64,000 bases of DNA from Saccostrea cucullata (lineage: Eukaryota), in NCBI RefSeq assembly GCF_032062105.1, contig NW_026938683.1, positions 1 to 64,000 of the forward strand. The letters are read 5' to 3'. Made by a program: the position numbers and the translations under genes. How positions within the stretch are numbered: the first letter of the stretch is position 1; each line of letters opens with the position of its first letter. The notes beneath the pieces were generated by a model. It worked only from the letters and a program-made list of their open reading frames with translations, ran no database searches and had not been told where the DNA came from. This document shows positions 60,845 to 63,071 of this stretch, piece after piece.

Positions 60845-61747
60845 CTAACAATTATAGAGACGACGGCTATTCTTAACAGTTTCCTTCAGTAGGTACTGCA
60901 CGTTAACTTGTAGTTTTGATGCAACATCGGCGGCAACGTCTCCAATGAACGCGGGGGTGTTTACAGTTCCTCCTCCTGGTTTCATGTATGGGGAATCTGT
61001 TTCCACAAGCAAGCGGCTCATTGGGACGGACTGCAAACCGGCAACTTGATCAGCACTAAAGTTCGTCACAGCACCTGTGAATCCAAAATAGACGTTAGAA
61101 TAGTTATCCATCCATTCCTTGACTAATTCAGGGTCACCAGTGAAACAGTGAAGATGTATAGGTTGGTCTGGATCACACGATTTCCTAAGTAGTTGGATGC
61201 AGCGTGCGTGTACATCCATCCCAATCCTGTCTGCAGCTATTCCACGCAAGTGAAGGACAAGGACTTTATCCTTACGGGTCAACTTGAGCACTTGGCGGAA
61301 AACTTCATCTTGATGTCTCCACAGCTTCACAGGGACAGTTCTGTCAAGTCTGATCTCACCTAATGCCACCACATATGGATTGTCCAACAACTTCTTCATA
61401 TGGAGGAATCTATTTGGTGTCAACTCATCAACATGCTTGGGATGAACTCCTAGAGCTATCCTCCAAGGACCATGCATATCCGCAAGTTTGGGGTGTGTTG
61501 ATGGCTCACTATAGACAGCTACTCCTCCTAAAACTGTTACGTCGAGGTTAGGACGCAGAGCGCTGGAATAGGAGTAAGATAGTAAATCCTCCACAGTTTT
61601 CCCTGAAGAAACTTTCCATATGCGGGAACAAGTCCGGTCAAGATGAAAATGACTGTCGAATGCTTCTAACAGGGAAGATGACTGAGAACTGCAAATCTCA
61701 TGAACAATACATGGGTCACTCTGAGATACTGGTAGAGGTTGTCCACA
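60845..61747 (-). CDS. tatD: TatD-family metal-dependent DNase domain carried by the retrotransposon
   Basis: The frame is open from 61747, upstream of the tracked start. Motifs: FDSHFHLD (HxH), LGVHP, VVALGEIRLD, LVLHLRG, IHLHCFTG, YFGFTG, RLLVETDSPY, NTP. Confidence 0.9.
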   Translation of the reverse strand, partial: CGQPLPVSQSDPCIVHEICSSQSSSLLEAFDSHFHLDRTCSRIWKVSSGKTVEDLLSYSYSSALRPNLDVTVLGGVAVYSEPSTHPKLADMHGPWRIALGVHPKHVDELTPNRFLHMKKLLDNPYVVALGEIRLDRTVPVKLWRHQDEVFRQVLKLTRKDKVLVLHLRGIAADRIGMDVHARCIQLLRKSCDPDQPIHLHCFTGDPELVKEWMDNYSNVYFGFTGAVTNFSADQVAGLQSVPMSRLLVETDSPYMKPGGGTVNTPAFIGDVAADVASKLQVNVQYLLKETVKNSRRLYNC

Positions 61748-63071
61748 TCAGACCCATAACAGACATCAATACACGTAAGTTCATCTTCCGTTGACGAGTC
61801 AACAACCGGAACTTGAGTCTCCTCGGTATCTGGAGTACCAGTAATGCCCCCTGTAACACGTCCATATGTACGAAATTCTTCGCGCTGCATGGGATGCAAA
61901 GGTGACAGAAGTACTACCAAACACCTCCAGTGAAAAAGGGTTGCTGGTGAGTTAAGTGGCGCTAATGTGAAACCCTCAGGTGGCTCTAACCATCCTTGAT
62001 ATCTACACAATCTCTGCATATAGATGACGGTGTCAGGATGAAGAGTGGTACCCCGGGTAAGAACTCCTGAGCGGTTCACATAATCCATGGCAGAGAGTAA
62101 ATCAGCATCATGTCCTAGAACGCTTTTTACCAAAGATTCCAACGCTGAGTACTGCAGCTGGGCCAAAGAGGATTGGTCCAAGGAACGCAGTGGTCTTATG
62201 TCGCTGAAAATCTTAGGAAGGTGACTACGCTGAACATGACGCTTGATCTTCTTATCCCTCTGTCCACAGTCTGGAAATGGGCATTTCTGAAAAGATGGGT
62301 TGTCATTTTGTAGAGCTACCGTCACTCGAAGATTAGGGTCAAGTCTCGGTCGTTTAGCAGACTGTTCTGTTTCCTGGACTCTGCGTGCAGAATTCCTTCC
62401 AGATAATCTAACAGGAATAGTCTTTGGACGCTGAGTACACTCGACGACTGGCTCATGACGGTCGCAATCCGCCGTGTCATGTGCTTCGGATAACTCCGCC
62501 GCTTCATGCACTTCGGAGCACTCCTGATCCGCTGTGTCACGTGCTACGGATAATTCCGCCGCTTCATGCACTTCGGAATCGTTCCCTACACACTCCTCCC
62601 CCATCACCATAGGCTTCTCCACGGTAGAAGGTTCAGAAGGTTCCATAGCATTCTCTCGCACAACTCCAAGATCCGGGTTGGACATTAATCTTATGTTAAC
62701 GCACATGGACGATGAGTTGGCTGACGAAACAGTTGCTGATGTAAGCCTCCTTTTCCTCAGTGGCTTGGATCTACGTGATAGTGATGGAAGGTTGTCTTCA
62801 ACCCACCTCCCTGAGCATAGAATGGTAACAGCTTCATGCCTTGTCGCCTCAATCCCTCTATTTCTCCTATATCCTGGCCAATCTACTGGTACAATTACGT
62901 CGCAAATGGTCTGGTGAGAAGTTCCATCACTCAACAGGGCTAGGTCGTAAATCAACTTCTTCCAAGACTTCTGTTGGCGGTTTTCCTCCTCACAAAGTCG
63001 ACGTAATGTTCTCCTCTGTTTTGACGAATGGTGGACTTTTCCGATTTCCAGGATCTTTTGTTAGATGACAT
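61666..63071 (-). CDS. accessory ORF, N-terminal part: basic N-terminus, acidic repeat, C2H2-like finger; probably fused to TatD
   Basis: 429-aa tracked ORF (62955-61666) containing CPFPDC-x9-HVQRSH. The nearest upstream ATG (63071) is one base out of frame. The ORF overlaps the TatD frame by 82 nt. Confidence 0.7.

Follow-up and report, generated by a model that had tools for sequence, protein, structure and literature searches.

A broken zinc finger-TatD gene downstream of pol in a Ty3/Gypsy LTR retrotransposon of the oyster Saccostrea cucullata

The window analysed here is the whole stretch of 64,000 nucleotides from Saccostrea cucullata (RefSeq assembly GCF_032062105.1, contig NW_026938683.1, positions 1 to 64,000 of the forward strand). 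At its end lies the 3' part of an LTR retrotransposon on the reverse strand. The 3' end of pol, with the integrase C-terminal region and a PHD finger, is found at 63382-64000 (-) and runs past the window as an open frame of 1329 codons with the order PR-RT-RH-IN-PHD. It is followed by an AT-rich spacer from the pol stop to the ATG of a third gene, ORF3 (63072-63381 (-); 311 nt in the nearest sister copy), by the remnant of ORF3 itself (60845-63071 (-)), a polypurine tract (60601-60609 (-)) and a 3' LTR of 321 bp with TG...CA ends (60280-60600 (-)). The gag gene and the 5' LTR are outside the window at contig 67.3-72.7 kb, together with a PBS-like site. The whole element spans ~12.4 kb in the layout gag, PR-RT-RH-IN-PHD, ORF3, PPT, LTR. 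The PR-RT-RH-IN order of pol after a zinc-knuckle gag, the paired TG...CA LTRs, the PBS-like site and the polypurine tract are those of Ty3/Gypsy elements, and the stretch at 60845-63071 almost certainly represents, in broken form, the single third gene of such an element.

Elsewhere in the window, a WD40 repeat frame at 11664-12323 (-) and a FAST-kinase-like frame at 22686-24208 (-) are host exons, the latter adjoining a 425-codon frame without a Pfam match. A His/Asp-rich frame of 101 codons at 57146-57451 (-), also without a Pfam match, is likely a host exon too. Tandem arrays with units of 156 bp and 166-168 bp lie at 5922-7108, 8618-9475 and 53698-55043, at 3590-4356 and at 16012-17278, and the 156-bp unit occurs at three places.

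The TatD domain encoded by ORF3 has 141 matches in the genome, from which we sampled 40 loci with long matches and an identity spread of 23-54%; since it was selected for long matches, this sample favours intact copies. In 31 of these loci the TatD is preceded by an integrase in the same orientation. The two LTRs of the window copy differ at 23 of 289 aligned sites (8%), each being 3-4% away from the LTR of another copy, and no matching target-site duplication was found there. Among the related loci, the retrieved sequence includes an LTR pair in 16, of which 4 have identical LTRs, and 4-bp target duplications are present at 10 of the 16 pairs as well as at the solo LTR L070; the identical LTRs and the duplications at these pairs indicate that the lineage has moved recently. 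A donor-like AAG-GTAAGG at ~60338-60346 in the 3' LTR is kept in six of seven aligned LTRs of the family.

The gag protein starts with a helix-hairpin-helix (Pfam HHH_3, E 9e-08; L031 8181-9992 (-)), followed by Retrotrans_gag and a zinc knuckle, and the gag starts of distant subfamilies are similar. The PHD finger at the end of the integrase (63385-63546 (-)) is closest to the CFP1/PHF2/BPTF type, its best solved relatives being CFP1, PHF2, BPTF, PHF8 and DIDO. The PHD fingers of these proteins are H3K4me3 readers, and the integrase finger may direct integration toward active chromatin. By tblastn it was detected in about half of the sampled loci but not in the L096-L108 group.

In the window copy the remnant of ORF3 is spread over three frames. 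As given in the preliminary description, the ATG at 63071 is present and reads MSSNKRSWKSEKSTIRQ, an A4 run lies at 63019-63022, and the gene spans 2227 nt. Comparison of the frames assigns the N-terminal basic segment to the ATG frame, which stays open for 36 codons beyond the A4 run (62963-63071 (-)) and is conserved in the sisters and in proteins of other oysters. The middle part is carried by a stop-to-stop frame of 464 codons at 63060-61666, which yields the described 429-aa ORF when counted from its first TTG. It covers an acidic 27-bp tandem repeat inside the low-complexity linker (62468-62577 (-)), a C2H2 zinc finger of the form CPFPDC...H...H (62221-62283 (-)) and a conserved helical domain ending in P-x-N-S-x3-L-x-H-W (61880-62220 (-)), which is predicted to form one domain with the finger. 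The third frame (61747-60845, 300 codons) matches the Pfam TatD domain with an E-value of 2e-40; it has no upstream Met, as described, and its first Met is 3' of the HxH motif. The class II TatD domain proper covers 60845-61660 (-) with the motifs DSHFH at 61657, GVHP at 61450, GEIRLD at 61360, LHLR at 61255, HLHCF at 61156 and ETDSP at 61003 (all (-)).

The preliminary description had joined these frames into one protein interrupted by two 1-nt deletions, the first at the A4 run. We mapped the breaks by pairwise alignment of the window with 13 sister loci. Two net one-base frame shifts are real, and there the window falls 7 and 4 bases short of its sisters. None of the sisters has an indel at 63019-63022, and break 1 has to be moved to 62960-62964 (-), as the window is shorter near 62962 than all ten covering sisters, which are longer by 7 bases in six cases, by 6 in two and by 14 in two. 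The KQRRTLRR peptide obtained by adding a base to the A4 run is read in the wrong frame, which holds a stop in three of the ten translated sister loci. Break 2 falls in the linker ahead of TatD at 61734-61742 (-), where all eight sisters are longer by 4 or 10 bases. Because 7 and 4 each leave a remainder of 1 when divided by 3, the earlier arithmetic worked, and the total of 743 codons was nearly right. Two lesions had been missed, a cluster of four small deletions private to the window copy at 62862-62890 (-), with a net loss of 6 bases that keeps the frame, and a change of Gly to Arg in the GExGLD motif, whose Gly is the same in all 55 homologues aligned.

A DNA search of the same genome gave 32 matches, eight of which are near-full-length sisters with 76-92% identity. 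In three of the eight, ORF3 is a single open frame from its Met, of 745 aa (L002), 755 aa (L006) and 758 aa (L007); the remaining five are broken at other sites by a stop, an insertion or other indels. These counts are not independent, as some sisters have common flanks and are probably alleles of one insertion. The proposed single protein with a basic N-terminus, an acidic linker, a C2H2 finger and TatD is thus intact in the three unbroken sisters and broken in the window copy, and the breaks flagged there are ordinary damage, with corrected coordinates.

That ORF3 consists of separate ORFs or uses programmed frameshifting is suggested by the three-frame layout of this single copy only, and we give it practically no chance. 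None of the sisters conserves the breaks of the window, which we take as a refutation; the finger and TatD are read in a single frame in 24 of the 40 sampled loci and in 118 of the 120 listed database homologues; and a slippery heptamer is absent at both break sites, in agreement with the earlier remark that the 61666-61747 overlap holds no X-XXY-YYZ sequence. Between mutation and long-read error, which had been left side by side, the breaks are probably decay. It is unlikely, though well above negligible, that the animal carries an unbroken copy and the breaks are assembly errors. The seven private indels are without exception deletions, six of them inside 210 nt, gag is one base short relative to two sisters, and the LTRs of two subtypes, the mismatched flanks and the missing target duplication would fit an error or a chimera. 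Against this, each break involves several bases and neither falls in a run of 5 or more, pol keeps its frame through 3987 nt with 9 runs of at least 5 and 45 runs of 4, an otherwise invariant Gly has become Arg, and five of the eight sisters are broken elsewhere. Among the sequencing runs compared, none contained half of the window's words (best 0.37).

Database relatives of ORF3 fall into two groups of 326 and 59 proteins, of which 120 and 59 are listed, and near-identical proteins are labelled Saccostrea cucullata. The named element-type relatives among the matches listed come from bivalves and abalone, in addition to symbiont MAGs, whose matches are probably host DNA. The finger-helical domain is found in 118 of the 120 listed group 1 relatives and in 41 of 46 group 2 relatives, and the two groups can be aligned over their full length. 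Linkage to pol outside the Saccostrea genome was found in two Mytilus gene models only, with TatD joined to a retroviral-type protease or to an integrase zinc domain. A bacterial or viral origin was considered and rejected: metagenome, prokaryote-genome and viral contigs gave matches to the TatD domain only, with 24-37% identity and none reaching the finger.

The class II TatD ligands (HxH, E, H, H, E-x-D) are present in the window copy. The series H-x-H, E, H, H, E-x-D does not vary in any of the 55 aligned group 1 homologues and varies little or not at all in 33 group 2 homologues. The predicted structure of P0122, a protein named TATDN2 in the database, is a TIM-barrel (pLDDT 89) that matches YcfH-type structures in Foldseek with an E-value of 4e-14. 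P0122 is identical to the ORF3 of L097, so at least one database protein with this name is an element gene, and what looks like TatD expansion in mollusc genomes may consist of transposon copies. The model of a natural 504-aa member shows two domains and a match to YcfH-type TatD structures. The finger and helical part is predicted as a single domain of ~150 aa with a pLDDT of 93. Foldseek searches of PDB and BFVD with this model gave nothing at E 0.001, and its best VIA-align Z was 3.1 among 48,161 chains; the absence of a match does not prove a new fold. Ahead of the finger, a motif of the K(K/R)x(K/R) type is present in 91 of 129 homologues (shuffled mean 39, maximum 52), and hydropathy of the same region gave no signal peptide or membrane segment in any of the 129. 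ORF3 has neither the signal peptide nor the membrane anchor of an env-type protein, the remainder of the gene consisting of the finger, the helical domain and TatD.

To place the TatD domain, 150 TATDN2-side relatives were retrieved with an exon of a host multi-exon TatD gene; those named include TATDN2 of abalone, spider, turtle and millipede. The tree has 73 rows, 13 of 86 having been omitted as long branches or near-duplicates, is rooted on TATDN3 and includes no TATDN1 rows. Element TatDs and TATDN2 group together with a support of 100/99, TATDN2 alone with 99/95 and the element clade with 94/83; the element TatDs are sister to the 27 TATDN2-side rows and are not nested inside TATDN2. A grouping of the element TatDs with mollusc-side TATDN2 was rejected with a p-AU of 0.024, this group having been named after the tree was seen, and fast evolution could draw the element clade outward. 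Profiles of the finger-helical domain match none of the 150 TATDN2-side proteins. The host has a multi-exon TATDN2-like gene at a separate locus (L120), and ORF3 is a single exon between pol and the LTR. Judged from sequences, one old capture from a TATDN2-type gene is the simplest reading. At two further loci (L118 and L119, G000 C14024), TATDN3-like host genes that lack introns form a tandem cluster.

That ORF3 characterises a large and old Ty3/Gypsy lineage, with a nuclease domain sister to TATDN2, was not seen in the preliminary description. Across 14 loci, among which are near-copies, RT distances rise with TatD distances (Mantel rho 0.67, 1 of 5000 permutations). ORF3 is under purifying selection in every domain: between the two subfamilies nearest the window dN/dS is 0.17, with 0.22-0.23 in the N-terminus, 0.14 in the finger-helical part and 0.10-0.13 in TatD, and it ranges from 0.08 to 0.39 in 13 whole-ORF pairs with unsaturated dS. 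Between L032 and L034 dS is 0.74 in ORF3 and about 2.4 in pol, a contrast that suggests exchange of the 3' module between sublineages.

One subfamily (L092, L093, L095, L112, L114) has a TatD without H-x-H and two further histidines. It is still selected, with a dN/dS of 0.12 between L092 and L095, and has young copies, so catalysis is dispensable in this subfamily and binding alone may suffice. A single frame of 2100-2230 codons carries both its gag and its pol. There are also young copies with most of ORF3 deleted (L112), which implies that ORF3 is not needed in cis. Four loci (L084, L085, L086, L087) carry ORF3-type genes, of 774 and 1102 aa in two of them, with no pol or LTR pair in the stretches compared; they are possibly domesticated copies, and L087 has lost its metal ligands, H-x-H and two more histidines.

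Two kinds of fused frame were considered and set aside. An in-frame fusion of integrase and ORF3 in L100, which could have pointed to a pol-ORF3 fusion as a trait of the family, is due to a deletion of ~260 nt that is absent from two sisters. Frames joining protease to TatD (L109, L116, L123, L128, L129) were not counted as evidence for packaging; they are internal-deletion derivatives of the L104 family with about 92-95% identity, three of them without HxH. They are multi-copy and non-autonomous, and successive internal deletions have joined protease to TatD with the frame open each time. A search for longer fused forms found none, which is weak evidence.

In copies with an unbroken pol end, the own ATG of ORF3 lies 27 to about 410 nt past the pol stop. 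Of ten ORF3 starts, five show an acceptor-like site, defined as a pyrimidine tract with YAG, no farther than 25 nt from the ATG, where 1.45 are expected (P 0.008, under a rule that was fixed after data on the loci were seen). A canonical YAG acceptor near the ATG was not found in the window's subfamily, nor a conserved splice donor in six leaders. No splice joint was seen in 105 raw reads of the window's family and 53 of the L104 family, which came from three runs with 11-51 reads per run and were of mixed strand. The contig depth was higher in ORF3 than in pol in one run and not so in the L104 family; as it differs between the two families, this contrast was not used. From the sequence we infer a putative spliced subgenomic message for ORF3.

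For the function of ORF3 we propose that the protein, translated from its own ATG and likely from a spliced message, would enter the nucleus, as the NLS-like motifs make likely, where the finger-helical domain would aim the TatD nuclease. There, at transcribed copies of the element itself, the nuclease would trim the RNA of R-loops or of RNA hairpins, and the element might gain smoother transcription or export of its full-length RNA and less silencing. The model for this is human TATDN2, which degrades R-loop RNA and requires its N-terminal extension for R-loop binding, as described in PMC10711561. By this analogy a nuclear role of ORF3 as a nuclease of R-loops or structured RNA is conceivable, if somewhat doubtful. 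The different N-terminal module and the sister position to TATDN2 imply that the substrate may differ. The complete statement, that the window holds a broken ORF3 copy whose intact sisters encode a zinc-finger-helical-TatD protein, made from a spliced message and acting in the nucleus to trim RNA of R-loops or hairpins, appears plausible to us, falling just short of probable.

The conserved subfamily without most metal ligands is what would be expected if ORF3 were a nuclear nucleic-acid-binding adaptor, whose barrel binds while cutting is optional, and which serves export or protection of the full-length RNA or acts as a decoy for host factors. The finger-helical domain is kept in every subfamily with a whole ORF3, the ligand-less subfamily and the young copies lacking most of ORF3 would fit an adaptor acting in trans, and there is a precedent in CERV of Cer1, which is made from a spliced message and is required for export of genomic RNA according to PMC10309623. 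Binding alone would hardly enforce ligands that are invariant in all 55 group 1 homologues and nearly or fully so in the 33 of group 2, and we regard an adaptor as unlikely, though worth keeping in mind. Slightly less likely still in our judgement is a DNA-processing enzyme, a 3'-5' exonuclease or AP endonuclease for cleaning the ends of the cDNA or for assisting in repair of the integration gap. Both of these activities are described for TATDN1, TATDN3 and the E. coli paralogues (PMC10085689), and the best matches among solved structures are YcfH-type enzymes; the nearest cellular branch is nevertheless TATDN2, reported with little DNase and very weak AP activity (PMC10711561), and ORF3 has a frame to itself, no fusion for packaging being conserved and that of L100 being copy-specific. 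The position of ORF3 in the env slot and the degradation of extracellular traps by parasite TatDs (PMC10085689) would agree with a cytoplasmic or extracellular enzyme that destroys surplus element cDNA or RNA:DNA, and so evades innate sensing or helps cell-to-cell spread. The lack of a signal peptide or membrane segment in all 129 homologues and the enrichment of NLS-like motifs speak against this role, which we consider improbable.

Taking the proposed R-loop nuclease further, an old branch of animal Ty3/Gypsy elements may have acquired a TATDN2-type enzyme in a single event, outside the animal TATDN2 genes sampled, and joined it to a zinc-finger domain whose fold is undescribed, to be used as an R-loop resolver that keeps copies transcribed. 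With an H3K4me3-type PHD finger on the integrase and a helix-hairpin-helix in gag, this would be a chromatin-adapted retroelement, and many TATDN2 or tatD annotations in molluscs would be elements. As a whole we find this scenario rather unlikely. Whether mobile elements manage their own R-loops can be tested directly in this system, in which the natural ligand-less versions are built-in controls. TatD would join the few host-type enzymes kept under selection by LTR elements, and the confidently folded 150-aa domain without a structural match adds to the interest of the gene.

Nuclease ORF3s of LTR retrotransposons are already known from Juno and Vesta; a TatD in the env slot was not found in the literature that we searched for TatD or TATDN2 in retrotransposons, Gypsy, LTR and bivalve transposable elements, and Repbase, Dfam, subscription papers or supplements may describe these families. 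The words 'nuclease' and 'PHD' are absent from the main texts of the mollusc and annelid LTR surveys. Like CERV of C. elegans Cer1 (PMC10309623), ORF3 is an extra protein of an LTR retrotransposon that would be nuclear and made from a spliced message; the abstract on CERV mentions no nuclease domain, and no homology is claimed. The fold and metal ligands are shared with TATDN3 and with YcfH and YjjV of E. coli, the class II enzymes described in PMC10085689, which, unlike ORF3, are single-domain cellular enzymes and more distant in the tree. Human TATDN2 (PMC10711561), the sister branch, likewise has a class II HxH TatD as its C-terminal part, after a long N-terminal extension, whereas the oyster ORF3 is intronless and element-borne, lies outside the TATDN2 clade and has the finger-helical domain.

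Juno and Vesta of bdelloid rotifers are LTR retrotransposons with a non-env enzymatic ORF3, a DEDDy 3'-5' exonuclease and a GDSL esterase (PMC5408684). As in these elements, the oyster lineage is Gypsy-type and, as far as sequences tell, has a nuclease gene with intact catalytic residues after pol in the env slot. The oyster nuclease differs in being a TatD barrel, fused to a zinc finger and a helical domain without a structural match. It also differs in its history: the resequenced env-like and GDSL-like ORF3s of Juno and Vesta are described as near-neutral within the genome (PMC5408684) and their captures as recent and repeated, whereas the oyster ORF3 is clearly under purifying selection and apparently goes back to one old capture.
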